From Tubulanus polymorphus (lineage: Eukaryota; Animalia; Nemertea), in the NCBI RefSeq assembly GCF_964204645.1, contig NC_134027.1:23026560-23090559 (forward strand): DNA of 64,000 nt. The letters are read 5' to 3'. This document shows, piece after piece, positions 2,377 through 64,000 of the stretch. Both the position numbers and the translations under genes were made by a program. Each line of letters opens with the position of its first letter. Within the stretch, counting starts at the first letter, position 1. Below the pieces are notes generated by a model. That model saw nothing but the letters and a program-made list of their open reading frames with translations. It did not search any database and was not told where the DNA came from.

Positions 2377-5300
2377 ATGCATGGAAAGGTAAGGACGAGA
2401 GCTACCACGTATTTCATCCAAATTCATTTTTGTAGATTAAATCTATGCAGTTCCATTGATTAACTAAACCTTGTGACTGATAAGTGCGTGGTAAATCATT
2501 ATCTAACGAGATCCAAACGAAAACCGATTTCGAAGCCGATATCACACGTGACAAATTAGTAATGCACACATTAATTTTCGGTCCCGGTTTGACAGTGTTA
2601 TTTATCGAAACAGTCCAAAGGGTTTGATTTACAAATTCACATCTAGCGCAGACAGCCACCCCTGATATTCTAACATCGAGCAGATTGTGAAATCATGCTG
2701 CTTCAGTACATTATCTTCATTACAGAAGTGTTTGGCAGGGATTGTGGTATCATTTCTAATGTGGACAGGAATAAACGGTAATATACAGTACAGATTTCTA
2801 CTTGCAAAGCCGACCACAAGTGACATGATTAATTCATTTTGCATTGTGAATGTAACAAAAATTATTAGAAGACATGCAGTCATCGGCTTTTCATGAGATT
2901 TGACATCAGGATAAAAGTTCTTTGGTCCATTAGTAAGAATGCCCTAATCCGCGTACGCTGTAGATGATTGAAGAAATCCCGCAATTCGAATTTGTATGAA
3001 AAATTTATTTCTTTATCGTATAAAATAAATGGGATTTCTTCAATTAATTCCTTAATCCACATAATGACAAAATATTTAATGCGCCATAGGCAATCCTGTC
3101 CTTTTTCAAAGCAAATTTGACTATGAGAAGTTTTGTACATCCTCTACCCGACCACCATTACGATTTCCACAAATTTCCACTCGGACTCACTTCAGCATAT
3201 CAAGGCCTGACAACTAATAGATTGACGCAGTTTATACTCAACACAAATGACCTTTACACGTTTCGTAATTCAAATATATATTCTTGCAACGATTACTCGG
3301 ACGCAATTTTATAAACGTTTTTCCTGATAAAAGTATACCAAGGGAATGCACTGTTAATGATATCTTGAGGAAATACAATCTGTGAGCAACGTTGCTAGAA
3401 TGTTTTGACATCATATGATTGATTTCATGCGAAATATGTAATGAATAAATCATGTTTCTAAAATCACGTTGATCCAGTTGATAATCAGCCTTGCGTAAGT
3501 AAACATCTGACTAATTACACGTTTTTGTCACGAATTAATAATTCTTTCTGGATAGTTTCTCAACAACCTCCTCTGCATTTATAGAATTTATAGGCTTCGT
3601 ATAGTGACTTCAACTCGAGTTATTATGGACCAGTTGATATCTGTCTAAAGTCGACTATAAACAAACTTTCATTTCCTTCCATTGAAAATTTCAGGTCAGC
3701 AACAGAACTGTATCGACGGAGCGGATACGACACTCACGACAGTTGCAACACCAGCAGTTGTAATACTAGGTGGCACCACTGTCGTACAATGTCAGGTTTC
3801 ACCACCCGGTAAACATTTCTGCGGTCTCAGAATAACAATGTCTGGCCAATCGGGACATTTTGCATTTGACGAGATTAACTGTCCTAGGGGAACTATCACT
3901 GGGTACACTGGACAATGTGACGTCACAGCTGGACGCTATGGTATACGTATCACTAATGTACGGATGATTGATTCTGGAATGTGGAAGTGTGATTACATGA
4001 ACTCTTTTCCGAATAGTAACACAATGATTACTGTAATAGGTAAGAATGATAAAAAGGTCAATAATATCTCATTTCTCTTATCGTGTTCAGTGATGAAGAG
4101 TGACTGTGAAATTGCATTCACCATTTGATCTAGGTTTGAACAATTCACTGACTGCGAGTGTGACGAGTAATAACGTTAAAGCTTTATTAATTAAATTAAC
4201 GTGAGTAAAACGTGTAACATTTTACACGTACTCTAATCATTTGTAGCATGTTGATCTATAAGAGTAAAATCTCGCAATAAATGAATTGATTGCTAACTTG
4301 TTTAATATTTGAAATATTAGAAATATTTCGGGTGGTTGCTACCACCCTTCTTCAGTCTAAAATGACTGCCCAAATAAATACACAATATATGTAAACATCC
4401 TACTGATGATAAATTTATTATGAAATTGACCAGCCGATTACCCAGCTTATCGACTTATCCTTACGCCCCCCCCTAAGATTCGTAAAAGTAATGTCCCTTT
4501 ACGCATCTTATCATCTCAAGAAGGGGCTCTCCCTCATCTCTCTGGATCCTCGATTGAAAAAAACGCTTTCTCCTTTGTTGGTTCGTTCTCTGGTTCTCAT
4601 ATCAAACAAGATATGGATTTACTACAAGACGTCACGTTACCCTTAATGGCAACAAGTTCATTTCGCTTGATGCAGTCTCTCTGTTCACAGCATCTCTCTG
4701 GAACTCACTTCAGATTTTATCAAACGTTAACTCCCGTCCTGTAATTTGAAGTTTCCTGCCTCAGTTAACTGTCTCGTTGATCTTTTAGAACTAGCGCTAG
4801 AAGAGCCTATTTTCAATTTGATGGCATTTTCTTTGCGCAATATGATTTCGCTACGGGACTCTATCGCCTATTCTAGCTAACCTTTTCTTAGAACACATTG
4901 AATCTGAAATTTTACCCTTTATTCGCGCCTCTTCTATGGCGCAGTTATGTCGATTATATTTTGTGTTTAGTGTCAACTGATCTCATCCTTGACATCTTTT
5001 GACATTTCTTAATTCCCTTTATTTATCCTTCCTAGAAGTTTACCTTCGAGTGGGAGTTCGATGAAAAAAAACACTTTTTTGGATGTTCTCATACAAAATC
5101 TTAATTCGAGATTAGGTTTCTCTGTTTTTCGTAAACTTACTAGCTGTGAATCCTACCTGAATTTCTTTAACTTAACTTAAAGCGGTGGTTGTTCAGGGTC
5201 TTTCCCTTGGGCCTTGGATTTGTGATAAAAACTTTTTAGGCCATGAGATTTTACATAGTAGGGGAGCTCAAATGTGGGTTTCAATTCCATTTTAGCGTAC

Positions 5301-8300
5301 AAAAGTTTTGATGGAAAATTTCAATATTTCCAAATAAATGATTGGGTAAAAGTGCTTTCTTGCATTTTTGGTTTGGGCATTAAGGGGCTATGGCCGCTCA
5401 AAAATGCCCAAGAATCATGGTCAATTTCACTTTATTTGTGTACAACGCTGAAATTTTAGTAACATAATCAACCTTTTTTTTTAAAAAAACTTGCATACCC
5501 GGACAAAGTTTTAAAAGTATCTTCCTCTGTTCTGTTCTCACTGTCCTGATTGTAACCTTTTTATATTGGGGAAACTGGGAAGAATCAAGGAACATAAACG
5601 AGATGCTTTTAAGAGGGTGAAATTAGAAAGTGTGGGGTAGTCCACCATTTTTTGCAAATCGGAGATACTTTTGAATTTCCTGGAGCCAATATTGCTTTTC
5701 CAAACAGCAATCTCACTATAGACAACACATAGTAAGAATCCGCTTTTGATTTGTACTCATTCTGACCGCTCTGTCAACCTCAATAAAGGTTTTAGCCCCC
5801 ATTACATCTGTTTTTCAAAATATGTCAGTACTCCTGTCCCCATTACTTAATGTGCAGTAATTCGTATCTTATTTCATGCATAGACCATGTATTTATGTAC
5901 ATGCGCTGCATTTAATTTTGCAAGTCATTTTAGACTCAAGGAGAGTAATATTTCTTACATTCGAAGTAAACTTTTTAGCTATCAATTCATTTATTGTGGG
6001 ATTATACTCTCATCGTTTTATCACGGATATTTTGTGATCTACAACTGATTCATGTTGATTTATTAATTTTGAAGTGGATGATTTCTTTTAAATTGCCAAA
6101 ATCTATAATATATAATGTAGCAGACGCATTGAAAATGAACCATCGAAGACCCCGTGGTTTTCAATATAGTTTCATATTTACAGTGCCCCCGAGTGGACCA
6201 GTTCTAACATCTCAACCAAACACCGCCGACAAAAACATCGTCGCAGTACAGGAGAATTCACAATTAACAATCACATGTGACGGTTCACAGCCTGGAGCTA
6301 CAGGACTGACGTATAAATGGAGTGGTGTCAATCTATCAGGACAGTCTAATAATAAACTCAGTTTTACACGAATCAGTAAAACTGATTCAGGTGTTTATAC
6401 ATGTAACGCATCGAATATAGCAGGAACAGTTGCTGGTAATATTACTATCAAAGTTCTATGTAAGTATAACGTTAAGATAGATGAACACACGTGATTTACC
6501 TAGTATTCATATTAGGCAATTTGTAACAGAAATTTGTTGGAAATAACCCAGTCAATGGATTCAAAGGAGTTCGTTTTTCAAATCTGTGTTTCATCGATTT
6601 CGATAAAGGAACGAAATATTTATAGGGACCTACTTATATCTGCGTTGAATGCTGGGGAAAACGCGCGCTACTTCTTTACGGAGTTTATTATGAAGTGCAT
6701 TTATGAGGCTGAATTATTTTAAAGTTTCAGATTCTATCCTTATCAAATGACATTTTGTTACATCGGGATAAAGCAATTATCTAGAATAATGAAGTAGGCA
6801 AGAAAATATCGTCAGATTACCACAAAATATTAATCTAAGCGCGTTAATCCTTTAAACGCGGACTCTTCTGAGGCATATTTTACCCTATTCAATCGGGTGT
6901 GTTCTAGACCCCTTATGTCCCATTAATTAAAGCAGATATACATATTTCATTCAAATGAATCTTCCCATCGATCGATATTCACGATATTTCCTCTGAAGTA
7001 TATTCGTCACGATTGTAATCGGGTGAGTTGCGGCTTTGAAAAATATGCGGCAGTTTACCAGCGAACCGTAACGATTAAAACATCAATAACGTACGAGAAA
7101 TTTATTCATGCGAATGCATTGTTGGACTTGACTCGATACTTCATATTTCATATCTATTTGAATGAGAGAAATAACTCAAAAAAGCTTCATGCAAAGGCTT
7201 ATGTTTGTAATAAATATGATTTTTAATGCATTTCAAATGAATTTGGGCCGGTAATCTGAAATATGAAATTGTACAGAATAATCTGTTGCTGTTGTACATA
7301 TAACTCATCGATAAAGATAATCGCTTTTTAACACTTTTAATTTCAGACCCGCCAAGTAGTGTTACATTACAAGGACCGACGTCACCCGTTCAGGAATCCG
7401 TATCTGTTAACGTAAAGTGTACAGCTACAGGGGGTAACCCAGTACCGAACCTCGCCATAACTAGAACACCAGGGGGCAGCACGATAAAACAGGGAATAAG
7501 CCCTCTAACATATTCAACATCCGTCATTAAAACAGATAACCAGGCAGAATATCAATGTAGAGCTACTGGCGCTGGTATATCAACACCAATGATTTCTAAT
7601 AAAGTTCAATTAAATGTCACCTGTAAGTACTGCATTTAGTTTACAAATTACTTGTTATTCCCATGAAGTAATTGCGGTTCTATTTTTGATATAATTCTGT
7701 TTCGTCAACACACCCGGATTTTGACAATATCGAGAACAAATGATTTCTAGTTCAAGCAACAACGCTGAAAATGGTGAAGAAACCAGCAGATTATGTATTA
7801 GTAAACAATAATCAACAGATAGAGTGTAGAACTGACTCGTCAAACCCGGCTGTACAGATTCAGTGGTTCACAAATTCCTCTACAACATGGACAGTACTTG
7901 CCTCTCAATCAGCTACGAGTCAAACTAGTGCAGCCTATCACGGGTTTATGGCTACTAGCAAATTATCTATTACTGCGACTAAAACCATGAATCAGGCTCG
8001 ATACAAATGTCAAACTGGAAATCTTTACAAGGATACAAAGATTACCGTTTACTGTAAGTTTAAAATACATTAGTTCTAAAATATATCATTTCAGATCATT
8101 CGAAAATATTTCGCACCGGATTAATAACCAAATGAAACCTGTTTCTAAACTACACGTAGAGGTTCATTAATGACAGTGAATTGAGAATTTATATGAAATT
8201 CGTTCTATTTTGAATTCGTCCATTTCAGACCCGCCAAGCAGTGTTGCATTACAAGGACCGACGTCACCAGTTCGGGATTCTACTTCCGTTGACTTCACGT

Positions 8301-11300
8301 GTACAGCTACAGGGGGTAACCCGGTACCAAACCTCACCATTACTAGAACACCAGGGGGCAGCACTGTGAAACAGGGAGTTAGTCCTCTAACATATTCAAC
8401 ATCCGTCAATAAAACAGATAACCAGGCAGAATATCAATGTACAGCTACTGGGGCTGGTATACCAACACCAATGATTTCTAATAAAGTCATATTAACGGTC
8501 AACTGTAAGTACCCGGATTGTTTTAACTTCAAATTATTGGTTAATCTCATGCAGTCAATTCAAATACACCTTGGTTGCAAACAATGTCCTCGGGAATTTG
8601 TATTTACTTGCGACAATCCAAAATTTAGTTCTAGCAACAACACTGACAATGGTGAAGAAACCGGCAGATTATGTATTAGTAAACAATAATCAACAGATAG
8701 AGTGTAAAACTGACTCGTCAAACCCGGCTGTACAGATTCAGTGGTTCACAAATTCCTCTACAACATGGGCAGTACTTGTTTCTCAACCAGCTACGAGTCA
8801 AACTAGTGCAGCCAATCACGGGTTTGTGGCTACTAGTACATTATCTATCACTGCAACTAAAACCATGAATCAGGCTCGATACCGATGTCAAACTGGAAAT
8901 CTTTACAAAGATACAACGATAACCGTTCACTGTAAGAGAAAATCACATGTTCGCATCTTTGAATGACCATCTAATAAAGTATCAATCATGACTTTCAATG
9001 TTATATCTTCAGTTCCACCAGAGTCAATAACACTGACTGAAATCCCAAACGGTCCAGTTGTTGAAGGTACATCAAAAACTTTGACGTGTACAACTAAATC
9101 AAGTAACCCGCTGTCTACAATTTTCTGGGCGTACAGCTCTGGGACGACAATATGGACTGATATTTCACCCAGTCCAGCAGTAAATCATAAACCCGGATCT
9201 CAAAGTGCACGGGCATCTACTAGTAGTCTAGCAGTACCAACTGATAAGGATAAAAATGGTAGACAATATAGATGTACAGCTTATCAAAACAGTCAACCTG
9301 TCAATGGTGTCAACACATCCATGACGTTGTCTATATTGTGTGAGTGTTGAATAGGCGATTTATCTTCTTGATAAATGAAAATGCACAATAAATAGATGTA
9401 TTCGTAGCTGTTCGGTAGAGGTCTTGGATTACTGAGGCAATGAAATGAAAAATTATCTTTTAATTTTGTAAAACATAGTAGTTAGTGTATATCAATTAGT
9501 GTATCAATCAAATCCACGAATGATTAATTCGTCACAGAAAACTTGTAAAAAACTGATATGATTTCATATGAGGGAATTTTACTCCATTTATCAGTTACTT
9601 TTTATAGCCGATGTCCGCTGTAAAAAAAACCAGTATGACTATAGTGAACTGATATTTATCTCAGCGTAGAATTAACAAATAAAAACCCTACGAAAGCGTC
9701 GTTGTGTTCTTACAAGTGAACTTTACTCCATGTATTAGTGATATTTTATCACCGATGTCCGATGTAAACAACCAGTATATACACAGTACAACGACAGCGT
9801 CCGGGGGACATAATTACTTTGCATCGAAGGAAAACATTCTAAAACAATTCATCTATCTTTATTCTAAGTTCTATTCCGAATTTCATCCGTATTTTGTTTT
9901 AATTCTACTCCGTTACTCAACGGGATCAAATTCCTGATAGCATTAGTGCAACTGGTACATATCCTCATTTGAGACTACACTGTACATTCTTTCATATTTC
10001 AAGTGCTGGAAAAATTACTCTTGTATTTTCTAGAAACTTTTTATTCTATATACACTGGATACAATATTACATATTTAGTTCAATTCTACAATAGATGCAC
10101 CGCAGCTTTCTTCACAAGTTGAACCCGTTGCCGCAAATATAGGAGAAAGTGTTAGATTTACGATAAACTACGATGCGAATCCGCAAGCGACAACTCTCAA
10201 CTGTAGACACAATTCAACAAATGACCGACGGAAAATGAAAAATACTAGTTTAACGCAGTGGAATGTCATCATACAATCAGTTCAGGCGGCTGATTTTGGA
10301 TCTTATTCGTGTAGACTCAATAACTCAGTTGGTAGCATAGATTTAACACTGAAACTCACTGAGACTGGTAAGAATCATGTGCTATTTCGAATTATATGTT
10401 TTTTTTAGAAATTCGCAGTCATTTGCACTATAGCACTATTTACCACTTATCAATACTAATAAAACCTGCAAATATCGATTGCAGCCTGAAACCTATTTTC
10501 AATGATAACTCTTCTGTTAGTCGTTCATCAATTGATAATATTTGAGTTGTCGGATGTCTGGAGGGATGCTGGGCCCAGGGTTCAGAGTAATACCGGAGTA
10601 ACACTCTGAATAACACGAGACTGCATTTTGCTGAACTGGGATCCCAATAAATTAGTGCAGCGCGCGAACTATAAAACGAATTTCTTTTTTTTTCTTATTG
10701 TTTCAGGACCTCCCAAAACACCGTCAAATCTGTCAGTTATTGCAAAAACAGCCATTTCTGTGACGCTGAGTTGGGTGTCTGAATTTGAGGGTGGTACCAA
10801 ACAAACGTTCGCTGTCAGTTACAGGGCTTGGAATTCCATACAATTCGTGAATAAAGCTGAAATACCCGATCCCGGTTATAGAAAACTGGTGCAAACGAAA
10901 ATAACCGGTTTAAAACCGGCAACTGATTACCAGTTCAAAGTGAAAAGTGTCAACTTAAATCCTGGTGATAATACAAGTCCATTTACTGATATAGTTACAA
11001 CTAATACAAATGGTAAGATTGAAGGCTTGTTAGATATGTAGGTTTTATAAGATATAAATACAGGCCTATTTTTAAGTCCGTTGGAATAATTAAACGTAAA
11101 TTCCTCATTTCTTTAAGTTTCTGATTAGGATAATTTTGTTTGAGTTGAATTCCTCATTCTCGGAAAATCCTCATTGCGTGTCATCGAAGAAATTCAAACA
11201 AAAAGCTGCTTCGGATTATTTTACCAGTAAACTTTGCCGATGTCATTCACATTCGACGTCGCATCATTTCCGGTCAAATTCAGAATCAAGGAGCTTCCCG

Positions 11301-14300
11301 TTGATACGAATATAGGAATCGGAATACGTAGCGACATACGTGCCTCCTCGATCCCCGATCTTGAGAATTCGGCTGTTAGTTCCAGCTAGTGGGATTGGCT
11401 GCAGGTGCTTCATTCTGGATGATTGTGTTGATGATATAATTTTTTCTGCTCTTTTTTTTAAATCGAATTCATGGTTTCTAATTTTCTAGCTATTCCAAGC
11501 GCTATAACCACCGTATTGAAGCAAGCGACAGTAACACAGCAAGGAAATAGTGTCCTGATAAAAATGTCGTCGTTTCCGTCGAAGTACAGCGTCTACGTGA
11601 AATACTGTATCAAACATACAAACGAATGTTTTAATTCTACGAAACAAGAAAGTACTGGCGGTTCGATTAGTATTGAGATTAAAATCGATCCCGATCAAGC
11701 ATACAGTTACCAACTGATTGTAACTGAGAGTAGTGACGTGATTCTGAGCCATCAGGTTGAAATTCCAGGTAAATATTTGCTGGTTAGTGTCGGTAAACCA
11801 AGATCCAAACGTTGAAAAGAGAAAGATAAACAAACAAATAAATGCATAGATATCCCAACCACGCCTATAGTCATTTTGCTAGTTCGCTTTTAATGAAAAA
11901 TATCTCTGGTGAAATCCAGGCCCATCGATACTTCCTTGTCATAATTTGCACATTTTATTTTCCCATTTTTCGATCCTCTCAGTTACTACCAATGTTGCGT
12001 TGATCGGAGGTGTTGTTGCTGGTGTATTGTTGGTCGCCATCATCGTTATTGTGTTCGTGTTTCTATTCGTGAAAGGTCGTCGAGACGGTCAATGGATCTG
12101 GACAAAATACTGCACGAAAAGGTTTATGTTTCTTTTTGTTTATACGTTACTAGAAGTTTCCTCTTCTATTCGCTAAGCTTAATCGAATGTCAATAGATTA
12201 ATTTCCATGCTGAGCAATAGACTCTTATTTTGTCTTTAAGGTATGTCCTACCCGTTTGTGTCCTATTCCCTTTTTAGATGGGCCAAAGAAAAAAGCAATG
12301 CCGTCCTTTGATTTGTACGAGCCATAAAAAACGATAGTCCTTTTTTCAACAATAAGTGTCATTAATTCCACCAATGACTTCATTAATTTTGACGATAAGG
12401 ACATATTTCGTGATGTAAAAGTGGGCAATTTTCGGTGATATATTTCAAAAATCAGAATATTATAAATGGTCTCGAAACTGGTTGTACACGTTAGTTACAC
12501 CACGAGAAGATTCGAATCCCAATATTCCATTTAACCGATCCCTTTCACTAGCGACAATTATATTTTCAAAATGTGTAATCGACGTGTAAATAATGCAGCG
12601 AAATCATTCTTTCATTTCAGAAAAACTGGAGAATCACAAGTTGGTAAATGAAGTAGAAATAGATTTGTTATTCGATGGGAAATATAATATAATGATAATA
12701 TTATCAGTAATTTCATCATTATTTGAATTACAGGCCTTCTAGGGTTTCATCGGTTTTCCATACACTGAATATTTTTAAAACGAATACGTAACATCAATTC
12801 TATGATATTTTTGATAATAGCGTCATTCTTGAACAGAATTGTTCTTATAATTTCAGTTTATTCGAACACGAAGGAATCCCCGTGTATGTATATTCGATGC
12901 ATTTTCTGCCTTCGTGTCTCACTGTGAATTGAGTTTACTATCGAAAAATATGATATTTCAGACTCTTACGCCACGGTAACACCGAACGTAAATGCGGCTT
13001 TTGAAGGTGGTAAGTCAATTATCATTAAATCACTTTTTCAATTTAACTTATTATACGTACATTTCTATGAAAACATCTATGAGAAAGTTTACAAAATTTT
13101 AGTCTCACCAGTGGCAAGATGTCGTCGACATCTGTACCAACTATTTTTGTTCCAAATCCTCACAGCCGCTATTCCAAAGTGCCACCTTATCATTTTAGGG
13201 ATACGAATCATTTTTCTTATCTCATAGAATTTCAGGGCTTTTAAAGATTTTATCAGTTTTTACGAAACCCCACAAGGTGAAAACTCATTTTTCCGTGGCC
13301 ACTGAGTAGAGACAATAGCTTGATGTAAGTGCTTAATGACCTCACCATCTTCTAACCAGTCTCACTGCTTCTATTCTACCCCCTCCTGAACGGCGCTAGC
13401 TATCCTTTACATGTCCCTATATTCTATTATAGCAACTAAATGCTCTTCTATCTTTCCAACAAACTCCCACCTTGTAATCTGAGCCATTTGCCATCAGTGT
13501 GCACACTGCACACTCTACTCATATATACATTTAACTATTGAATCTACACCAAAAAATAATCTTCCGTTCGAACGGAAAGGTTTGTGGCCTCGAAAAAAAT
13601 ATGTATTTCTCAGCATGTTACCATAGGTTTTCTATTTACTTACACTGAATATTATATTTTTTCAATCTTGGAATAATTTTCATCATTTCAGTCTATTCAA
13701 CCAGTAATCAAGCCCATGGCACAGATCTGTGTATGTTTATTCGTTGCATTTGATACTTTCTCATTTCACTGCGAATTTAGTTTACAATTTATGGAATATG
13801 ACATTTCAGACTCTTACGCCGCGGCCACAAGGAGCGTAAACAAGGCTTTTAACGGTAGGTCAATTATCATTGAATTAAGTCACACATTTCTATGAGAAAA
13901 TCTAGAAAATCTAGGAGACAATATAGAAAAATTCTAACGAAGGGCTAGCTATCGTAGACATTTTGTTTCAATCATCCTTGACCTAGCCTCCGCGCCTGCC
14001 TTGTCATTTTCGGGAAAGTGAGCATTTCATTAATCCGCTTGCATTCTTAGTTTTCCTTCGTTAAAATCTGGCTTCTGAAGATATTTTACTGTTTTCTAAA
14101 AACACTGAATATGTGATATTAGGAAATTCATACATATCATCTATGTTTTTCTGGATATAATTGATTTTATATTTATTCCTTGAACCGAATTTCCACCATT
14201 GCAGTTTAATCAAACAGTAATGAAGCATATGACAAAGACTCGCGTATGGATTATATTCGTTTCATCTGAAACCGTCTTATCTCCCTGTGAAATGCGTTTA

Positions 14301-14661
14301 CTATTGATAAAATCATATTTCAGACTCTTACGCTGAGGAATCACTGTATGTAAATGTAGCTTTTGGCGGTATGCAAGTCATCATTAAATCACTTCATCGA
14401 TTATCATTAACCCATACCATAAAATTCATCGATAGACATCATTCTAAGCAAACAATTTAGAATCTTCACAAAAGACTTAGATATCGTCGGGTTTTTCAAC
14501 TACTCGTCACCTAAGCTCCGCGGCCGCTTTATCATTTTTTTTGGGATAGTGATAACTATGTGTTTTGTTTGTTTCCTTCATTAGAAGCAGACTCTGTAAC
14601 TGGTGACCAGAACCATTATGAAGAAGTTATTATGGAACTTTTTACTGACTCGAAAAACTAG
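2377..14661 (+). CDS. Gene A: multi-exon Ig-superfamily type I membrane receptor (SP, V, 7 Ig, FN3, FN3-like, TM, Tyr-motif tail; nephrin/sidestep-like)
   Basis: Hand-built GT-AG exons: 2377-2388 (MHGK, least certain), 2726-2777 (signal-like KCLAGIVVSFLMWTGIN), 3695-4039 (V-like), 6184-6459 (Ig a), 7347-7622 (Ig b), 7751-8053 (Ig c), 8229-8504 (b), 8629-8931 (c), 9013-9339 (d), 10095-10367 (e), 10707-11012 (FN3), 11490-11768 (FN3-like), 11983-12121 (TM), tail 12621-12643, 12857-12883, 12962-13009, 13692-13730, 13810-13854, [14205-14243 contains TAA], 14324-14368, 14591-14661 (..NHYEEVIMELFTDSKN*). Ig motifs C...W...DSGxYxC or YxC. Domain exons are all phase 1-1. AATAAA follows near 14685. Confidence 0.85.
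3695..4039 (+). CDS. Gene A exon: N-terminal V-like Ig domain with extra cysteines
   Basis: ttcag acceptor and gtaag donor; VQC...IRITNVRMIDSGMWKC; 6 Cys; homologous to 49033-49383 (-). Confidence 0.85.
4258..6020 (+). mobile_element. Degenerate Penelope-like element (RT + GIY-YIG relic) in the gene A intron after the V exon, with inverted terminal segments
   Basis: Frameshifted fragments match the intact PLE protein in this window (SFSGSHIK, FISLDAVSLFT, PILANLFLEHIE, YIGETG, VNLNKGFSPH). 4258-4395 is an inverted partial copy of about 5900-6020. Confidence 0.85.
4317..4360 (-). ncRNA. Minimal hammerhead ribozyme motif (PLE-type)
   Basis: Minus strand TTAGA-CTGAAGA-A-GGGTGG-tagcaa-CCACCC-GAAA-TATT-TCTAA: CUGANGA and GAAA core, 6-bp stem II, 5-bp stem I, palindromic stem III. 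Confidence 0.75.
10707..11012 (+). CDS. Gene A exon: fibronectin type III domain
   Basis: GPPKTPSNL..SVTLSW...Y...ITGLKPATDYQFKVKSVN FN3 signature, bounded by AG/GT. Confidence 0.9.
11983..12121 (+). CDS. Gene A exon: transmembrane segment
   Basis: VALIGGVVAGVLLVAIIVIVFVFLFV followed by KGRR; 139 nt, the same length as the C/D TM exon. Confidence 0.9.
12857..14368 (+). repeat. Three tandem copies of a two-micro-exon cytoplasmic module in gene A
   Basis: Pairs VYS.. / (Y/H)SYA....N.AF at 12857/12962, 13692/13810 and 14205/14324, with homologous flanking introns. Confidence 0.75.
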
Positions 14662-18757: not shown

Positions 18758-19178
18758 ATAACAAGAGAAATCCCACAATAAGTTCAGCCAAAACGAGAAA
18801 CTTGAATAGAAGAGTTATATATATTTGCGCAACGTTTCGGCTAAAGACTATTAGCCATCATCAGGCGTACTGAGTACAGGAGAATATTACAAGATATTTA
18901 TACAAGACCAAAACAATAGAAGCAGAGTGAGTGATTAAAATATTGAAAGGGGAATAGATTAAAGTAATGACATAACAACTAGAAAACAATGCTAAAGTAA
19001 GCAAGGCAAACTAGGGGCAATGTAGATTAAAGTAATTAATAAACAAAGACACAAGCTAAAGTGATTAAAACGGGAGGACAAGCTAAGGGGTAATCAAATA
19101 AAACAAAGAGAAGGAACATGAAAGGCGATAATCAGTGAGTGAGTGGAAACAAGCAAACTATGATAAAGGCAAAACAAT
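18758..19178 (-). repeat. PLE pseudo-LTR (3' copy), 421 bp
   Basis: Appears identical by eye to 21615-22035. Confidence 0.92.
18826..18869 (-). ncRNA. Minimal hammerhead ribozyme in PLE pLTR
   Basis: CGC-CTGATGA-T-GGCTAA-tagtct-TTAGCC-GAAACGTT-GCG on the minus strand. Confidence 0.8.
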
Positions 19179-19186
19179 GGAGGGAA

Positions 19187-21577: not shown

Positions 21578-21614
21578 GATGAGACGAGAAGATACACAAT
21601 ATCCGTGTAAGAAG

Positions 21615-24504: not shown

Positions 24505-24575
24505 AATCGTAAGCGATGTACTGATTTTAATCTAACACATTAACTTTCTTTTAGACAATTATCTAACTTTTCCTC

Positions 24576-27678: not shown

Positions 27679-27714
<36 letters not shown>

Positions 27715-51429: not shown

Positions 51430-52380
51430 TAGTCCTATATTCTTGAATGTTATTGATTAAGTATCTTTGTTCATTGCGGTAAAAACCCACTCAGTATAGG
51501 TCTTGTATTTTCGTGTTAACAACGGCATTCAACACTGAATATCGATGATGAAAATGACTCTTGTCTGCATTATTCGCTATATTTACCTAACTTCCTGGTC
51601 GGAATAGAAATAGTACGTCTTTTTAAATATTCATTCGAAAGAAATTCTTAGCGCTGTACGTAGTGTTGATTGATATCAGCAGTTTACTTGAATATTGTAA
51701 GTTTATCGTTTTACTTTCAAGTCTTTATTTTTTTCAAATCTTACATTCGCTTTGCTGTTGTTTTCATCAACGTAATTAAATCACCAAACTCAATTGCCAA
51801 AGGTCAGAAAAATCTTTTTATCTTAATTTTTTTCAGTGTTATCACATTCCATTATAGTTGAAATTTGTGGCTAATTTAGACGCAGCCCACGGAGGTGTTC
51901 TGTGGTTCTTTGAGAAGCAATTCCATAGAGCATGCATAGATCATAAGGTAAGGATTAGAGTTACGCTAAATTCACCCAAATTCCATCCTCGCTTGCCAGG
52001 GGTCCGGTATCACTCCCGAACTCGCTTCCACCAGCCCCCTGGCCTCACGAAGCGTGATTTCATTACTGGCGCTGTTGTGCATGACGTCATATATCGATTT
52101 GCGAAATATTTCCTGGTTCAGTAAAACGTTCGCTGATTGGTCCATTTAACGGGAAAACCAATAGAAGCCTAAAGTCGTTTGTTACAAGCGCTGTGATTGG
52201 TACGACCGGATTCTGGTCGGCTAGTAACGACTCCAACGACTCGTGAGGTGAAGGGGTTTGGCGAACAGCTTTATCGTTGTGGATTCGAATCCCTTGACGG
52301 GTGAAGATGCCCAAATTCTGAAGATCTAATCAAACTCTTTATGTAGTTCCATTGGTTAACATATAACCTTGTGACTGATG
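51430..52380 (+). pseudogene. Orphan copy of the gene A upstream region and first exon
   Basis: Aligns with about 1860-2480; exon-1 equivalent ATGCATAGATCATAAG/gtaagg has an in-frame TAA; no downstream exons follow. Confidence 0.7.
51984..52309. mobile_element. 326-bp MITE with 9-bp TSD
   Basis: CCCAAATTC at 51975-51983 and 52310-52318; imperfect TIRs CATCCTCGCTTGCCAGGGG / CCCTTGACGGGTGAAGATG; absent at the paralogous site near 2420. Confidence 0.75.
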
Positions 52381-55968: not shown

Positions 55969-58900
55969 TCAACAACTCTTTTTCTGCTGCTCTTCTTCTT
56001 CACGTTGTCTGCGTCGTTCGGCCTCTTCTGCTTCCAAACGAGCGACAAGTTCAGCTTGAACTTGCGGCTCAACGACGCGACCGAGTTCCGAGTACGTCGA
56101 AAAATCCTCGAAATCACCGATCAGTACACCAGGGGGCGCTTGATTTTTGACGTTGTTAACGACGTGTAGATAGATCGGTTCTTTTCTCAGTTCTTCTACA
56201 TCGTCTGCATTGAATGCAGGGTTGTCGACACCACAGTTAACGTACTTCACGATATCCCCATCGTCATCGTTGTAAACGTCTTGATAAGGATTCGCTTCGT
56301 CGCCAACTGTTTGATAGGGATTTTCTGAAATCATACGCGTAACAACATTTAGTGAATTCAATAAACAATCCGTCAAACGATTCAGTTTGCCAGTCTACAT
56401 CTGGGAATTGAAGGTTCCATTAAATCTATCAAACCCTCCCGCATAAAAGTGTCTGCTTTCTAAAATGCCCATGACATCTTCAAGTCTGCCCACTAATGAT
56501 TGGATATTCATTTCACGCCCTATTTTCCACAGTAAACTCTGCCTTACTTGGACTTCCTTTGTTTTTTTCCCTTTTAGAAATTGTACTTCAGAGTTAGCGT
56601 ATCGGACATCGCACAAAATTCTGATTCTCTCGTTAGAATCGGTGTAAACGTAGAACTCACCCATTTCGTAGTTTTCATTTTTCTCTGCTTTTTTCGCCTT
56701 CTTTCCTTTACGCTTTTTGTTTTTATCGACTTGTGAGTAAAGTGGTTCTGCACTATCTACCGACCCTGAAGAGAAAACACGGGATGTGAATATTTTAGAA
56801 ACAAACTTCACGTCATACTTTTTCTCGAATATCTAATTTGGGATTTCATTTTGTGTAGCCAACACATTTTTTTCTTCGAAAAAGTTTCTGAATGTGCTTT
56901 TGCTACAAATAAAATCCCTTTAGTATAGATTTCATTCTATGCATTTCACCTTTCGTTTTCTTTTTCTTGCTTTTATCCACATTGGAGTAAATTGGATCAG
57001 TACCGCTTGCACCATTTACGACTGAAAATAAGCCACAAGTTTGAAAAAAAACGGCAAAATCATTGTCATTTCATCTATTATTCCTGACAACATTCGCATT
57101 ATTTATAACAACAACGATTCAGTAGTAATACTAAACTGGGAGCCGTGATATCAATGATTGAGGAAAAATAAAATCCCTTTAGTATTGATTTCATTCTATG
57201 CTTTTACCTTTCGTTTTCTTTTTCTTGCTTTTATCCACATTGGAGTAAATTGGATCAGTACCGCTTGCACCATTTACGACTGAAAATAAGCCACAAGTTT
57301 GAAAAAACCAGCAAAAAGAATTTCATACAATTCTATTCGAGAAAATCATTGTTATGTCATCTATTATTCCTGACAACAATCGCATTATTTACAACAACAA
57401 CGATTCAGTAGTAATACTAAACTGGGAGTCATGATTTCAATGGTTGAGGAAAATCATGATTAGTTTCTTAACAAAGCTTTTTCATCGAAAGTGACTTTAT
57501 TGATTCTGTACAAATTATCACGCATTTCTACGGCAATTGACGGCACTCTTCGTGTTTTCAATGATTTCAAGGAATCGGTAAAATCATGATTAGTTTCTAA
57601 TGTAAGCCTCTAATGGAAGGTACCGTAGTCTATGCACTAATGGTGGCATGGAATTGTGCGCGACCAATTATTTCATTAAATCTTTAGTCTAATACATCGT
57701 AAATAAAAATCGTAGCGGAAAATGCTTTTTGATTTTTTTTTTCACTTTATCTAGTTGGTTTTCATAAAACGAAATTTGAAAGAGTAAAACTATTGCCATT
57801 TCCTCTATGTAACTATGTGTATCGGTAAGTTCTTCGTGAATATACGGCACATGTAATCCTGCTATTCTAAGAGCATTTCACCAAATACGTCGATCGGTTC
57901 CTTGGTATCATTCTAGATTTGACAAACACTTGTTTACCTTGATTCTGATTTCGTTTTTTCTTTTTGTCAACCTGTGCGTAAATCGGTTCTCCTGAAAATA
58001 ATAGAATTCAAAATCTATTCCGATCGCCTCTACCATTCTTCTGGTCAATGATCGAGGAAACGATAGGTTTTTATAGATTGAGCCATCAATATTGTATCAT
58101 TTGGCAATTCCCGAATATAAGTGATCACTGTACACTACCGGACATTCCCGAACATTACCGATCACTTCGATCATTACATCCAAAAATACGAACTTGAATT
58201 CGCTACACTTTAAATCAAGCTTCGGACTTAGATATTGAGATAATGAATACGTTAATTGATTCGCGGCTCGGAAATACTCGGTGGTTTTACGGAGATATCC
58301 GGCAATATCGATCGGTCCAAAAAATCTATAAAGATAGGGCATTGTAACATAAAGATAAAACTCTTACCAGTTTTCTTGACTCCATCTTCTGAAACTGCGA
58401 ATATAGAAATGGATTTATTTAAGTACTTATAATGTATTAGTTCTAATTCAGTTATGACAATATTTGTGATACAGTAATACTACGTAAAATCCTACAATTG
58501 TAAATTGGCTAGAAAAGTTCATTCTAAAATTACTCGTGATAATCTGGGGGATTACTGCCACCCTCCTACGAACACTCTTTACTTTAAAGGGAGACGGATG
58601 AAGGAGACTTTTAAGATAGAAGCAGAGTGTTAGCAGCCACCCGCAATTTTTTCGATGATTCTTTTAACAAACCTTCCACTCAATTCAGTAGATCAGAAAA
58701 TATCTTTATTTCAATAATGACGAAGTCTCAATGAAATGAGGAAATGAACCGATTGCTTACCAAGATCGTCAATGTTCGAATACGGATCTGAAAATGTGAA
58801 ATACGTTTAAGCAACTCATAGACGGCATTGTGATTGAAGAATATTTTATAAAAGTCCGATCTTTAACTTAAAAACTCTGTGCTGAAGATAGAAAATATTT

Positions 58901-61900
58901 TTTTTCTTTTTCTTTTGCCCATTCGGGATCTAAGAGGACAAAGACAAACGTGAATTTCAATAGTATTTTTCTCTGAAGAAATAGAAAACCCTAATAATTT
59001 GTGCCAATTTTGATACTAACTAAGAAATTCTCGAAACATTTAGGGATGCGATATAACTATAAATATTGTGGAGATAACGTAGTTCATAATGAAAATTAAA
59101 AACTGGCTGACAAAGATTTTCAACAATAATTTGTGACATGAAACCTGTTGCAATAATCTGTTTGCGTAAATTTTCGGCGTGTAAGGAAGTTGTAAAATTG
59201 TGACATTACCGAAGTCATCGGTAGTGACGTGATTATCTTTGGTCGGTGGACTTTTAGGTTTTTTGTTGACTCGCGCGTACTTGTCACCTAACAAGGAAAA
59301 GACAAACAAATATTTGAACAAATATATGTTTATATTTTAGATGAGATGAAAGTTTTGAAGTGGCAAATGTTACCTCTAGGTCCAACTACAAATCCATCGA
59401 TATCGTTATCGTTTGGAGGAGGAACTGAAGCCGGACTGTAGAAAAAGGGAAACACATTTTTTTGTGATGATCGGTCGGGTTGGAAAGGGAATCTCTGACT
59501 TTTGATTAAGCTCAACAAATATGATTGGCAATTTCTAGTTTCGTATTGACTTTCGATGAATAAAGGCATCTACCTTTCCGATCGATTTTTGGTCCAGATC
59601 CATTGACCGTCTCGACGCCTTTTCACGAATAGCAACACGAACACAATGACGATGATGGTGACCAATACGACACCCACAACAACACCTCCGATCAATGTAA
59701 CATAGGTAGTAACTGATAGGATCGAAAATGAGAAAATGAAATTTGCGAACCATGACAAATGAAAGAATCAATCTGCCTGGGTTTCACCAGATGCATTATC
59801 ATTGAAAGTGAACTTACAAAATGACTATAGACATCAGATATTTATGCATCTTTTCCGTTGTTTATCTTTATTTTTAACTATTTGATGTTGGTTTACCGAA
59901 ACTAACCACTGGTTTACGTAACCTCACGACGGTACGGCAATGTAATTAATGCCACGGCGTAACGCTTTATCCCACTTAACTACTGAGACCGTTTCAATTC
60001 ACGAGGGGTAGTTGGAGGCAGGGTATCTGACCCCGGGAAATTTATATATCGGGTTCATTAAGAAGCTTCATTAATTTGCGGTTACATTAAGTAAATCGCT
60101 AAATGTTTCCGAATATTCTTTAGAAAGCTGCGCCTGATCGATTAACCCTACAGCCGGGCGCCGCGGATCTACGAATCCCGTCAATAAAGCTATTTGGATT
60201 TGTATTTGGAATTATATTTGTAACGTCGACCATGTGACAAAACAAAATGGCACCATCCAGTCCAGTGAACGAGAACTTGTCGCTATGATTTATTTGCTAC
60301 TAAAACGACGCCGTCGTCGACGACGAAGAATCCACAAGAGGGATAGAAAAAAGCTTATGTTATATCATCGACGATCTTACCACCGACCGAGCCAATATAG
60401 GATTTAGGAAGCATGGATATCACAATTCAACAGTAACCGCACCCTCTTAAACACAGCAGAACTCTATACCTGAAACAGAACTACAGCCTACCTGGAATTT
60501 CTACCTGGTGGCTCAGAATGACGTCACTACTCTCAGTTACAATCAGTTGGTAACTGTATGCTTGATCGGGATCGATTTTAATCTCAATACTAATCGGACC
60601 ACCAGTAGTTTCTAATTTCGTAGAATTAAAACATTCGTTTGTATGTTTGATACAGTATTTCACGTAGACGCTGTACTTCGACGGAAACGACGACAAATTT
60701 ATCAGGACACTATTTCCTTTCTGTGTTACTGTCGCTTGCTTCAATGCGGTGTTTATAGCGCTTGGAATAGCTAAAAATGAGAAAAAAAATTCGATTTCAA
60801 TATTAATGAAAACAATTGATATATCATCAACACGATCATAAAGAAAGGAATGCGTGTAGCCAATCCCACTAGCTAGAACTATCAGCCGAGGTAGAATTCT
60901 CAAGATCGGGAATCGAGGAGGCACGTATGTCGCTACGTATTCCGATTCCTATATTCGTATCAACGGGAAGCTCCTTGATTCTGAATTTGACCGGAAATGA
61001 TGCGACATCGAATGTGAATTTCAATTTCAATTTCAATTTATACATCATAAATCCAAAGTATAAGATTATGAATGAAGAAAAACAACAATAACAACAAACA
61101 GAAAAAAAAAATGATATCGGCAAAGTTTACTGGAAAAATTAGTACGAAGCAGCTTTTTGTTTGAATTTCTTCGATGACACGAAATGAGGTTTTTCCGAAA
61201 ACGAGGAATTTAACACAGACAAAATTATCTCAATCAAAAACTTAACGAATTGAGGAATTTACGTTTAATTAATCTAACGGGCTTAAGGATAGGCCTGTAT
61301 TTACATCTTATAAAACTTACATATCTAACAAGCCTTCAATCTTACCATTTGTATTCGTTGTAACTATATCAGTAAATGGACTTGTATTATCACCAGGATT
61401 TGAGTTGACACTTTTCACTTTGAACTGATAATCAGTTGCTGGTTTTAATCCGGTTATTTTCGTTTGCACCAGTTTTTTATAACCGGGATCGGTTATTTCA
61501 GTTTTATTCACGAAAGCTGAAACGGAATTCCAAGCCCTGTAACTGACGGCGAACGTTTGTTCGGCACCACCCTCAAATTCAGACATCCAACTCAGCGTCA
61601 CAGAAACGGCTGTTCTTGCAATAACTCTCAGATTTGACGGTGTTTGTGGAGGTCCTGAAATAATAATAAGAAAAAAAAATGAAATTCCTTTTATAGTTCG
61701 CATGCTGCGCTGATTTATTAGGATCCCAGTTCGGCAAAATGTCTCGTGTTATTCAAGAGTGTTAATATAGGTATTAATCTGAAGCCTGACCCGGCACACC
61801 TTCAGACATTCAACACCGATATTTCCAATTAATTAAAAGACTAACAGACGAACTATCTTTGAAATTTCGGGTTCAGGCTGCGATCGATATTCATTTTGTG

Positions 61901-63743
61901 GGTTTTATTAGAATTTATACCGTGGAAAATATTGTCATTATTTCAAGTGACTGCGAATTTCTAATAACTTCAAATTCGAAATAACACATCGTACTTACCT
62001 GTCTCTGTGAGTTTCAATGTAACTTCTACGCTACCAACAGAATTATTAAGTTTACACGAATAAGATCCGTAATCAGACGCCTGAACTGATTGTATGGTGA
62101 CATCCCACTGCGTTAAACTGGTATTTTTCATTAAATGTTTGCCATTTGTTGAATTGTGACTGCAATTTAAAGTTGTCGCTTGCGGATTCGCATCGTAGTT
62201 TATCGTGTATCTTATATTTTCTCCTATATTCGCGGCGATGGGTTCAACGAGTTGTGGCGATAGTTTTGGTGCATCTATTATAGAATTGAACTAAATATGT
62301 ATGTCGTGTCAAAGCAGAAATTTTCTAGAAGGCTACACGAGTAATTTTTATTAGCACTTTAGAGATGAAAGAATGTAGTTTCAAATGAAGATATATACAT
62401 ATGACTTTAGCGCATCTATTACCAATTGAACTAAAACTATGAGGAAGTTGATTCCATTGCGTTACCATTTTAAACGAAATCTTAAATGCTGAATGAAATC
62501 TTAAAAAATAGATGGATTGCACATTGTATGATGTTTACCTAATGAAAATACGAAGAACAATTTTTTGGGTTGTGATTCAATAAAAGTCAGCCATGGAAAT
62601 ACAGATAATGATTCGTTCTACTCGAACTTCTGTTGCAGATAAAAATATGAATCGTTAAAAATGTCATGCATTATTTCACACTTACACAATATAGACAGTG
62701 TCGTGGAGTTGGTGACACCATTAACAGGTTGACTGTTCTGATAAGCTGTACATCTGTATTGTCTCCCATTTTTATCCTTATCAGTTGATACTACTAGACT
62801 ACTAGTAGATATCTGTCCACTGTGAGATTCGAGATGATTTACTGGTGGACTGGGTGAAATATTTATCCACGTTGTCGCCCCAGAGCTGTACGCCCAGAGA
62901 ATCGTAGACACCGGGTTACTGGAGTCAGTTGTACACGTAAGAGTCTTTGATGTACCTTGAACAACTGGACCGCTTGGAATTTCAGTCAGTGTCATTGATT
63001 CTGGTGGAACTGTAGATATAAAAGTTAGAGCCATGATTGTTATGCCGTAAAACGGTCATTGAAAAAGTGATTTTCACTTACAATGAACGGTTATAGTTGT
63101 ATTTTTGTTAAGATTTCCAGTTTGACATCTGTATCGAGCCTGATTCATGGTTTTAGTTGCAGTAATAGATAATGTACTAGTAGCCACAAACCCGTGATTG
63201 GTTCCAGTAGTTCGATTCGTAGCTGGTTGAGGGTCAAGTAGTGTCCATGTTGTAGAGGAATATGTAAACCACTGAATCTGTGCAGCCGGGTTTGACGAGT
63301 CAGTTTTACACTCTATCTGTTGATTATTGTTTACTAACACATTATCAGCCGGTGTCTTCATCATTATCAGTGCTGTTGCTGTGACTAAATTTTGAATCGT
63401 CGCAAATTAACAAAAATTCCTGTATTCGAATTCAACGCATACGAGTAAATTCAATCCGGGTACTTACAGTTGACAGTTAATATAATTTTATTAGAAAACA
63501 TTGGTGTTGGTATACCAGCCCCAGTAGCTGTACATTGATATTCTGCCTGGTTATCTGTTTTATTGACGGATGTTGAATATGTTAGAGGACTGACTCCCTT
63601 TTTCACAGTGCTGCCCCCTGGTGTTCTAGTTATGGCGAGGTTCGGTTCCGGGTTACCTCCTGTAGTTGTACACGTTAAATCAACAGATGCAGATTCCTGA
63701 ACGGGTGACGTCGGTCCTTGTAATGTAACACTACTCGGTGGAA
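55969..63743 (-). CDS. Gene D: duplicate of gene C, 5' part lies beyond the window
   Basis: Exons 63468-63743, 63082-63384, 62686-63009, 61999-62274, 61346-61654 (FN3), 60492-60770, 59574-59712 (TM), 59374-59435, 59210-59287, 58761-58787, 58368-58388, 57938-57991, 57208-57279, 56950-57021, 56661-56765, 55969-56324. Confidence 0.88.
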
Positions 63744-64000
63744 CTAAAATGAAGGGAAAAACGATTCGACCTAAACGTTTATGGGCGGCCATACCCGCAA
63801 AATATCAGCGTCTCGTCTGTTTGTCTGTACTCCGGATAATCATCTCATCTTATCAACGTGATATTTTTCCTGGTCGATATTTTCAAGTTCGTAGGTAGTA
63901 CGGCTGTGTGTAAATAGACTGATTTTCGGTTTCCATTTTTGATTAAAGACTTGTCTAATTTGAGACCACAGCACCAGAGTAACGGCTTGTTACCGAAAGA

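Follow-up and report, generated by a model that had tools for sequence, protein, structure and literature searches.

Paired immunoglobulin receptors of vertebrates, among them Siglec-5/14, Siglec-11/16, PILRa/b, LILR, KIR and SIRP, are clustered genes whose near-identical ectodomains carry unlike tails, the long tail with an ITIM-type motif, and which bear signs of gene conversion (available parts of PMC3533184 and PMC13358205); for Siglec-5/14, Siglec-11/16 and PILR, gene conversion marks the pairing (available part of PMC13358205). Gene conversion keeps such receptors similar on vertebrate immune cells, and the invertebrate parallels, Alr and FcoR, come from colonial animals. The Hydractinia Alr complex is a cluster of single-pass V/I/FN3-like receptors with one domain per exon, shuffling, pseudogenes and varied tyrosine tails (10.1101/2022.03.04.482883), and Botryllus FcoR form a multigene family with inter-locus recombination, whose members bear acidic-x-Y core motifs besides ITIM and ITSM (10.1101/2024.10.16.618699, in the part available). 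In Biomphalaria, PTC1/PTC2 and linked Ig/FN3 genes provide spiralian clusters of single-pass, proposed pathogen receptors (available part of PMC10875847), while nephrin and SYG-2 combine about eight Ig domains, C2-set types included, with FN3 and a Tyr-motif tail, and sidestep is characterised by the layout V-C2-I-I-I-FN3. The window analysed here, a stretch of 64,000 bases from the nemertean Tubulanus polymorphus (contig NC_134027.1, positions 23,026,560 to 23,090,559), holds receptor genes that resemble each of these systems in part.

The differences are considerable. Compared with vertebrate pairs, the Tubulanus short tails own their tyrosine motifs, the long tail carries EPIYA-like repeats and one ITIM-type motif and an FN3 pair lies at the base of the ectodomain. 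No tail contains an ITAM (0/20) and no membrane helix has a charged residue (K, R, D or E) in its 21-residue core (0/20), so the family is not a member of the classical paired receptors and the classical wiring expected of it is not borne out. Nor is membership of Alr supported, for the Alr V domain lacks the B-F cysteines that are invariant here in 13/13 V rows (C32 on strand B, C98 on strand F), and four further cysteines are invariant as well. The Alr layout of one to three Ig domains with one FN3-like spacer also contrasts with eight Ig domains in gene A and nine in gene C, each with FN3 plus FN3-like; the Tubulanus stalk has two to eight Ig domains including C2-set types, its paralogs are far younger and only three tail classes occur. 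Alr was absent from the matches listed in the sequence and fold searches. FcoR switch motifs by allele and splicing and have hemITAMs (10.1101/2024.10.16.618699, in the part available), whereas Tubulanus swaps two unrelated tail cassettes under one ectodomain, and the FcoR host is a chordate, Tubulanus a spiralian. SYG-2 is the best of 33 PDB sequence matches of gene A (E 4e-18), with titin next (9e-17), which is consistent with a nephrin/SYG-2-like scaffold, although at least 20 membrane-bound paralogs, variable stalks and a second, FN3-like domain set the family apart from nephrin and SYG-2, which are characterised by a fixed layout of eight Ig plus one FN3 and a single-copy orthologue; the fold matches listed include no Alr, sidestep or nephrin chain, a result that does not exclude them. 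The available part of PMC10875847 mentions no paired tails for PTC1/PTC2 and reports measured polymorphism, and the searches gave no sequence match between Biomphalaria PTC and the Tubulanus receptors.

The family comprises at least 23 RefSeq models, a lower bound from RefSeq proteins (word-indexed and HMMER searches, cluster look-ups) that may include chimeric or duplicated entries. All are labelled Tubulanus polymorphus, and in RefSeq protein searches the V, FN3-like and tail sequences had no relative outside this species; the family thus appears lineage-restricted as predicted, and its 23 models refute one-to-one orthology with a conserved adhesion gene. Automatic annotation scatters these models over at least five unrelated names (nephrin-, syg-2-, NCAM-, contactin- and turtle-like). 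On the 27.8 Mb contig lie 21 of the 23, the other two being on a 16.5 Mb contig. A membrane helix is present in 20 models, with eight long tails, ten short tails and two of a third type; three models lack the helix and four more start at Ig e or FN3-like. The predicted V-(Ig)n-FN3-FN3like-TM layout is confirmed, as each module is a single phase-1 exon with GT-AG ends, Pfam matches comprise V-set, Ig, C2-set, I-set and fn3, and the FN3-like exon has a predicted FN3 fold (pLDDT 89.7, Z 9.6). The stalk varies from two to eight Ig exons; only three small members have three Ig domains, and those three lack FN3.

The window contains four such loci within 64 kb. A and C are intact, the former short-tailed and the latter long-tailed, whereas B is broken and D is cut by the window end. 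The original prediction had counted four paralogs plus a pseudogene; the total is four loci with the pseudogene B among them, a fifth being ruled out by a six-frame search of the window with every module. Gene A, on the forward strand, has a splice model identical letter for letter to RefSeq P0017. Its leader (2377..2777) consists of a first exon at 2377-2388 and a signal-peptide exon at 2726-2777, followed by the V-set exon (3695..4039) with six invariant cysteines and no C-strand tryptophan, which scores 21.5 bits against Pfam V-set, below the curated cut-off of 26. The stalk (6184..10367) has seven Ig exons in the order a-b-c-b-c-d-e (6184-6459, 7347-7622, 7751-8053, 8229-8504, 8629-8931, 9013-9339 and 10095-10367), and then come the FN3 and FN3-like exons (10707-11012 and 11490-11768; 10707..11768). 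The membrane exon (11983..12121) is of the long-tail type, yet a short tail comes next, and the tail swap is in the intron after the membrane exon. That tail (12621..14661) starts with exon 12621-12643, continues with a triplicated exon pair (12857-12883/12962-13009; 13692-13730/13810-13854; 14205-14243, with an in-frame stop, /14324-14368) and ends with exon 14585-14661, which encodes YEEV. Upstream on the same strand lies a second intact leader pair (1003..1266; first exon 1003-1014, signal-peptide exon 1212-1266) whose frame is open, whose ends are GT-AG and whose phase matches the V exon. It is either an alternative leader of A or the relic of a lost gene.

Pseudogene B, also on the forward strand, is interrupted by two retroelements. 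Its 5' remnant (16965..18081) retains an open Ig b exon together with frameshifted Ig e and FN3 exons, and the six-frame module search of the window found neither a leader nor a V exon for it. A Penelope-like element on the reverse strand (18758..22035) carries an 817-codon RT and GIY-YIG frame (19187-21640) and identical repeats of 421 bases (18758-19178 and 21615-22035), and a forward-strand LINE (22900..27711) comprises ORF1 (22900-24504), an endonuclease-RT frame (24567-27329) and poly-A (27683-27711). The intact 3' part of B (28207..30048), for which RefSeq has model P0023, has an FN3-like exon (28207-28488), a membrane exon of the short-tail type (28903-29041) and tail exons with the motifs YVNV and YEEV.

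Gene C, on the reverse strand, forms one open frame of 1430 amino acids whose last 1220 residues equal RefSeq P0001, a model from which the leader, the V domain and the beginning of Ig 1 are missing. The leader (50436..51029; first exon 51009-51029, signal-peptide exon 50436-50496) is shared with RefSeq P0015, and the V-set exon (49033..49383), missing from P0001, reaches 26.2 bits against the curated Pfam V-set cut-off of 26. Eight Ig exons (39362..46444) follow in the order a-b-a-b-b-c-d-e (46169-46444, 45035-45310, 44190-44462, 43069-43344, 40831-41106, 40445-40747, 40049-40372 and 39362-39637), the a-b unit being an internal duplication of 2 kb, so that the predicted difference in Ig number and order holds between A and C. 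The FN3 (38709-39017), FN3-like (37855-38133) and membrane exons (36937-37075; together 36937..39017) lead to a long tail of nine exons and 13 tyrosines (33336..36798), with SxYxxL on the last exon and four EPIYA-like motifs, one per exon, at 35302-35355, 34572-34643, 34315-34386 and 34025-34129. Head to head with C, on the forward strand, lies a dead copy of the upstream region and first exon of A (51432..51983); this is the orphan first exon of the original prediction (51932-51947), and it carries an in-frame stop. Together with the pseudogene, the truncated copies and the differing Ig orders bear out the predicted birth-and-death turnover and exon shuffling.

The 3' part of gene D (55969..63743, reverse strand; RefSeq P0009) reads b-c-d-e-FN3-FN3like-TM-long tail and continues beyond the window, and the window thus offers both predicted tail types, short in A and B, long in C and D. 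Contrary to the claim that the paralogs differ in their ectodomains, positions 59354..64000 equal 36717-41363 over 4,647 bases at 100%, introns included, and the 14 amino-acid differences between D and C all lie in the tail. It is conceivable, if rather doubtful, that C and D are a single locus written twice by the assembly, as tandem-laid alleles or as a collapsed and polished repeat. The exact block would suit this, as would the RefSeq proteins of C and D, which share residues 1-993 of 1224 unchanged; in run X1 the pieces of the block have depths of 43.4 and 39.9, compared with 39.7 for the C V piece and 42 for the 1-1309 piece, a depth that is not doubled, although copy number can be judged only weakly from contig depth. 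Against it, the window is free of N and gaps, two haploid copies would also agree with C and D lying in cis on a single haplotype, and an identical middle with different ends is likewise seen in E and F. Identity moreover falls stepwise from 100% through 96-98% across the distal tail to about 82% with indels in the 3' flank, as expected from nested conversion tracts. Whatever the answer, the question is separate from that of receptor function.

Analysis of the family as a whole shows like ectodomains on unlike tails, and does so more clearly outside the window than inside. H8 and H24 (P0008, long; P0024, short), on the other chromosome, share nine ectodomain modules at 87-99% identity with tails that match only at E 0.18; the H8 tail is 61% identical to that of C and the H24 tail 54% to that of B, although B and C lie on a different contig from H8 and H24. 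The V domains of A (short) and E (long) are 87% identical. In a V tree of 13 out of 17 V rows (excluding three from models without a membrane helix and the mis-spliced P0064, and with P0001 replaced by the rebuilt gene C model, as in the two V tests below), A groups with E (support 100/98) and H8 with H24 (100/100). Constraining the six long-tail against the five short-tail V domains, 11 of the 13 rows with the third tail class set aside, cost 97.8 log units (p-AU 3e-51), and long-tail monophyly is rejected. The tails themselves fall into classes, with best scores of 84-617 bits for long against long, 25-242 for short against short and at most 35 between classes, the top one coming from the common end of the membrane exon; in P0021, as in A, the membrane exon is of the long type and the tail short. 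Tyrosine motifs are retained in 20/20 tails across two contigs. All eight long tails contain SxYxxL/V and six of them EPIYA-like motifs, whereas the ten short tails end in YEEV, YEEI or YEDV, a motif found in 12/20 tails. The four EPIYA-like motifs of C were reached in 0/2000 shuffles. The pattern [SIVL]xYxx[ILV] occurs in 8/8 long tails and 0/12 others, once per tail; since this is not above chance in a single tail (P 0.35 against shuffles), the case for SxYxxL is one of conservation solely. The models of E and F were produced automatically, and their isoforms contain the same tail exons in different versions, so that neighbouring copies may have been joined. The RefSeq isoforms of P0015, which may join tandem copies, are not taken as proven alternative tails.

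The original prediction named a diversified V tip, and this stands in part. Within the window only A and C have V exons (68% identical), so a difference in V among four paralogs is unsupported there. Across paralogs, whose V identities range over 41-93%, V is less conserved on average (67%) than Ig a, Ig b and FN3 (78-81%), close to FN3-like (68%) and above Ig e (58%), and it is less conserved than Ig e in just 24/105 pairs; V as the most variable domain is thereby ruled out. Variation within V concentrates on the predicted C-C'-F-G sheet, in a weak structure model (pLDDT 66, one of five models good): column entropy is 1.02 on strands C, C', F and G (25 columns) compared with 0.52 on the 30 columns of A, B, D and E (P 0.003 by permutation; 13 of 17 rows, with P0028, P0063, P0064 and P0059 excluded). 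The dN/dS proposed per domain is 0.77 for the whole V, close to Ig a and c (0.79-0.85), and is raised to 1.19 over residues 38-60 and 94-114 (0.41 elsewhere) in the single pair A and C, in windows picked after the alignment was seen. Prediction of a V-V homodimer gave a score of 0.01 and no clear answer. In an atlas comparison, V resembles mollusc and cnidarian clusters of a generic V-set kind (0.95), and the long tail has leads below 0.9 only.

We give about an even chance that these receptors form a paired recognition family of independent origin, one with a likely immune role, directed at a changing and probably microbial or parasite ligand. Of the predicted immune or allorecognition system, pairing stands; the immune function we infer from the evolutionary pattern alone, and allorecognition finds no specific support. 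The V domain would bind ligand through the C-C'-F-G sheet at a reach determined by stalk length, and clustering would allow Src-family kinases to phosphorylate the tail. A long tail, with EPIYA-like repeats and one SxYxxL, would then bring in Csk or SHP2 and quieten the cell, and a short tail, with YxN and terminal YEEV/I, would engage Grb2, Nck or Src-type SH2 proteins towards actin or activation with no ITAM adaptor, such that one target would probably set off a go signal or a stop signal depending on the tail, as with the immune receptor pairs of vertebrates. YxN is a Grb2 motif and YEEI a ligand of Src SH2. As YxN is common to both tail classes (four in C), the go/stop division is not clean. 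EPIYA-A/B bind Csk and EPIYA-C/D bind SHP2 (PMC3593179, in the part available). This Csk/SHP2 code is known mainly from bacterial effectors. Gene conversion and unequal crossing-over may hold partner ectodomains alike as ligands push the V face apart. Still more tentative is the fuller proposal of activating and inhibitory pairs invented independently by a spiralian, with inhibitory tandem exon-encoded EPIYA-like motifs, a Grb2/Nck-type activating tail free of an ITAM adaptor, swapped tail cassettes and a pathogen-selected V face. If true in a solitary spiralian, the counterbalance design would be shown to arise with neither MHC nor ITAM adaptors nor colony fusion; nemertean immunity is almost unstudied at the receptor level, and the family would provide a concrete gene set.

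An expanded nephrin/SYG-2- or sidestep-like family, in which V sets which cells adhere, would account for the SYG-2 match of A, the C2-set domains of the stalk and the RefSeq labels nephrin-like and syg-2-like. Nectins and CEACAMs, too, use the C-C'-F-G sheet as their adhesion face. Terminal YEEV is akin to the Nck-binding YDxV of nephrin (available parts of PMC11247170 and PMC5996060), although YDxV itself occurs in 0/20 tails. We regard such a cell-adhesion or wiring code as somewhat unlikely, and equally so its elaboration, in which short tails act on actin and long tails serve as phosphatase/kinase scaffold in the nervous system, nephridia or epidermis. Wiring genes are conserved, unlike families of fast turnover. 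Here V, FN3-like and tail have no relatives beyond the species in the searches, rapid turnover is indicated by pseudogenes, truncated copies and the block of 100% identity, and repeated homogenising of long and short partners is not predicted by a wiring code.

Discrimination of self from non-self among individuals or gametes through a homophilic, polymorphic V, with tails that signal match or mismatch, shares the broad Alr layout of V, I-set, FN3-like, varied tyrosine tails, exon shuffling and pseudogenes (10.1101/2022.03.04.482883), but we consider it improbable given the young paralogs (V at 41-93% compared with a mean of 24% in Alr), the retained B-F cysteines and the missing ITAM. Tubulanus is, besides, a solitary, non-fusing worm. 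Slighter again is the chance of neutral churn, in which a tandem array is unstable, its modules and tails are reshuffled by unequal crossing-over into unselected pairs, and most copies are redundant: several stalk domains have dN/dS of 0.6-0.85, broken and truncated models are many, and like ectodomains on unlike tails arise in any mixed tandem array. Set against this are the tyrosine motifs kept in every tail, the V changes clustered on one sheet, and full frames of 1141 and 1430 amino acids with canonical splice sites. The paired recognition family is, in our judgement, the leading reading.

Of the sequencing runs, X6 and X7 gave no sequence matched to window positions 1-18700, which does not prove absence. 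In run X5, of whose raw DNA reads about 12 in 100 were covered, depth over C was uneven, which does not count as a finding. Run X8 yielded 29 low-depth contigs; several of the eight listed start or end within three bases of exon edges and then diverge from the window, which hints only weakly at paralog transcripts.

The receptor genes of the window belong to a real family that is apparently undescribed and, on the sequences compared here, restricted to the species or its lineage, with a solid pairing signature and a predicted function. It comprises at least 23 RefSeq models collected by exon searches, HMMER and cluster look-ups, all from T. polymorphus in libraries that may include no other nemertean proteome. 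The exon searches matched 8 of 822 candidates for the long tail, 14 of 53 for FN3-like and 16 of 170 for V; the eight matching the last exon of gene C are all proteins of this ribbon worm, and nephrin-like and syg-2-like are among the names assigned automatically to matched RefSeq proteins. HMMER with V against 1.84 billion representatives gave 32 matches, of which eight span V end to end or nearly (87–194 bits, all T. polymorphus), and the five examined among the other 24 (hagfish, two mammals, nematode, fish) are generic Ig domains with 27–34% identity. A membrane helix is present in 20 of the 23 models, stalks hold two to eight Ig modules, and the tails divide into eight long, ten short and two of a third type. 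Among the matches listed, and in the portions of text available, no published description of the family was found in the literature on the T. polymorphus genome, nemertean Ig receptors, nemertean family expansion, invertebrate paired receptors with gene conversion, lophotrochozoan IgSF or sidestep/nephrin expansion; the accessible part of a review (PMC11999971) does not mention it, subscription journals and bioRxiv supplements lying beyond the scope of the search.

The window itself is animal DNA (G+C 36%, zero N), in which the exon models of the receptor genes were assembled by coordinates. Gene A (2377–14661, forward strand) reads leader-V-a-b-c-b-c-d-e-FN3-FN3like-TM-short tail (1141 aa; a–e being the Ig exon types of the stalk) and equals RefSeq P0017, while gene C (51029–33336, reverse strand) reads leader-V-a-b-a-b-b-c-d-e-FN3-FN3like-TM-long tail (1430 aa) in a single frame with GT-AG at all introns, its first 210 residues being absent from RefSeq P0001. 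Locus B (16965–30048, forward) has no V and frameshifted e and FN3 exons but an intact 3′ part, which RefSeq models at 28207–30048 as a leaderless FN3like-TM-tail protein (P0023), and locus D (reverse) is truncated by the window end. Searching all six frames of the window with every module yielded two V exons and no locus beyond these four; the count of four paralogs plus a pseudogene originally given thus becomes four loci in total, the pseudogene being one of them. The ectodomain exons all begin and end in phase 1, which allows modules to be added, removed or rearranged without loss of frame, and Pfam matches in these genes are to V-set, Ig, C2-set, I-set and fn3. Near-copies of the 3′ parts of both B and A occur elsewhere on the contig (P0019, P0021), which points to duplication of an A-B block.

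Several smaller features accompany these genes. At 1003–1266 (forward), 1.1 kb upstream of the leader of gene A, a first exon and a signal-peptide exon are both intact and in phase with the V exon of A; they may be an alternative leader of A or the remnant of a lost gene. At 51029–51983 the first exon of C (reverse) lies head to head with a dead A-type first exon and upstream region (forward), with about 900 bases between, an arrangement in which a two-way promoter common to a long/short pair is possible. The short-tail exon pair of A is present three times at 12857–14368; the third has an in-frame stop at its start and is skipped by P0017, and P0021, a near-copy of A, uses the second exon of this pair and so gains an extra YVNV motif.

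The original prediction of like ectodomains with unlike tails is borne out. P0008 (long tail) and P0024 (short tail), on a 16.5 Mb contig, have nine modules that are 87–99% alike and tails that cannot be aligned (E 0.18), whereas on the other contig each tail finds an alignable member of its own class (C at 61% and B at 54%, respectively). The ectodomains were thus homogenised after the tails had diverged. Two forks are starred in a V tree of 13 rows, and each unites a long- with a short-tailed gene: P0008 with P0024 (100/100) and A with P0005 (100/98), the latter, like P0015, an automatic model to be treated with caution for pairing. Tail class shows no more clustering on this tree than label shuffles do, 420 of 500 of which were as low, and a tree that unites the V domains of long-tailed genes in one clade is rejected (p-AU 3e-51). 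In gene A itself a membrane exon of the long type is followed by a short tail. P0010–P0015, isoforms of one RefSeq gene, have their ectodomain in common, but their versions of the tail exons differ; for P0005 and P0015 all isoforms seen have a membrane exon and initial tail exons of the long type, and the last 260 residues of P0005 are those of gene D. The differing tails are either splice-chosen tandem tail cassettes or models joined across copies.

The long tail of gene C contains 13 tyrosines and four [ED]P[ILV]Y[AS] motifs, each on a separate small exon, a number reached in 0 of 2000 shuffles; six of the eight long tails carry such motifs. Similar acidic-Pro-x-Tyr motifs may also occur in the tails of other invertebrate receptors, which would make the EPIYA-like repeats here less surprising. 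All eight long tails have one ITIM-type motif, which singly is not above chance (P 0.35). Among the ten short tails, YxN and a terminal YEEV, YEEI or YEDV are found in all and TxYxxV in eight (A being without it). YxN binds Grb2 and YEEI binds Src-family SH2 domains. The family would work much as the vertebrate paired receptors do, as had been predicted, but, unlike them, has no charged residue in any of 20 membrane cores and no ITAM in any of 20 tails, and it is therefore not a member of that group. Csk is bound by EPIYA-A and -B and SHP2 by EPIYA-C and -D, and mammalian proteomes are reported to be depleted of EPxYAxV (PMC3593179); nephrin signals via YDxV and Nck (PMC11247170, PMC5996060).

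Anatomy and pairing are seen directly in the sequences; we infer the ligand, the cell type and the sign of signalling. In the most likely mechanism a variable ligand binds to the V face; damping would come from the long-tailed members via Csk or SHP2 and activation from the short-tailed ones via adaptors of their own, and conversion would keep paired ectodomains matched as in Siglec-5/14 and PILR (PMC13358205, PMC3533184). An adhesion code is an unlikely reading; SYG-2 is the best of 33 matches to solved structures, and barely above titin. Allorecognition or gamete recognition is more improbable: the likeness to Hydractinia Alr raised in the original prediction extends to the layout, but not to the V core, the number of domains, the age or the motifs (10.1101/2022.03.04.482883). 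Botryllus FcoR (10.1101/2024.10.16.618699) and the Biomphalaria transmembrane clusters (PMC10875847) are analogues. Neutral churn is the least probable reading.

Mean paralog identity is 67% for V, 78–81% for a, b and FN3, 58% for e and 68% for FN3-like, V being lower than a, b and FN3 in 98/105, 34/36 and 49/55 pairs and lower than e and FN3-like in 24/105 and 11/36. With e lower and FN3-like similar, V is not uniquely variable, and what survives of the proposed diversified V tip is the placement of its variation: entropy is 1.02 for the C, C′, F and G strands vs 0.52 for A, B, D and E (permutation P 0.003), with strands assigned from a V structure model of pLDDT 66 (other four models 35–37). 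Between A and C, V dN/dS is 1.19 over residues 38–60 and 94–114, windows chosen after alignment inspection, 0.41 elsewhere and 0.77 overall, with 0.26–0.85 in the stalk exons, one pair that cannot establish positive selection. In fold, the V model resembles the V domains of antibodies and T-cell receptors (Z up to 9.6, with rmsd 2.9 and 99 aligned); the B–F cysteines are kept together with four more invariant cysteines, and the C-strand tryptophan is absent. The FN3-like exon model (pLDDT 89.7) matches fibronectin/tenascin FN3 (Z 9.6, rmsd 2.1, 85 aligned).

Genes C and D are identical over 4,647 bases, introns included, 96–98% identical over the distal tail exons and about 82% in the 3′ flank, and their RefSeq pair has 14 amino-acid differences, each beyond residue 993. 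The cause is conversion or unequal crossing-over of very recent date, or else an error in the assembly, and we consider an artefactual duplication possible but rather doubtful. Run X1, where contig depth is a weak guide to copy number, has long pieces without difference from the window and may be the source of its sequence; exact pieces inside the block have depths of 43.4 and 39.9, pieces at the V of C 39.7, at 1–1309 42 and over the A tail and B 59–71, the lowest among the pieces listed being 16–24. Taking a depth of about 21 as a single haploid copy puts the block in two copies, either with C and D in cis on the same haplotype or with two alleles placed in tandem. A stretch of the intron between FN3 and FN3-like is 95–97% identical between A (11245–11771) and C (37852–38382), exon e being 84% identical, and marks a patch where a short- and a long-tailed gene recently exchanged sequence.

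Two retroelements lie in B between its FN3 and FN3-like exons. The Penelope-like element (18758–22035, reverse), with an open 817-codon frame for RT and GIY-YIG and a pair of identical repeats of 421 bases, looks very young. The LINE (22900–27711, forward), with open ORF1 (534 codons) and endonuclease-RT (920 codons) frames and a 29-base poly-A, is flanked by this element and by its inverted partial copy at 28002–28164. A stretch that by eye resembles decayed RT sequence, 73% alike between the two genes, lies in the V-a introns of both A (4306–5513) and C (47271–48444) and would thus be older than the A/C split. High-copy repeats with inverted arms lie at 41400–42750 in the b-b intron of C, where depth is very high in four of four sequencing runs.
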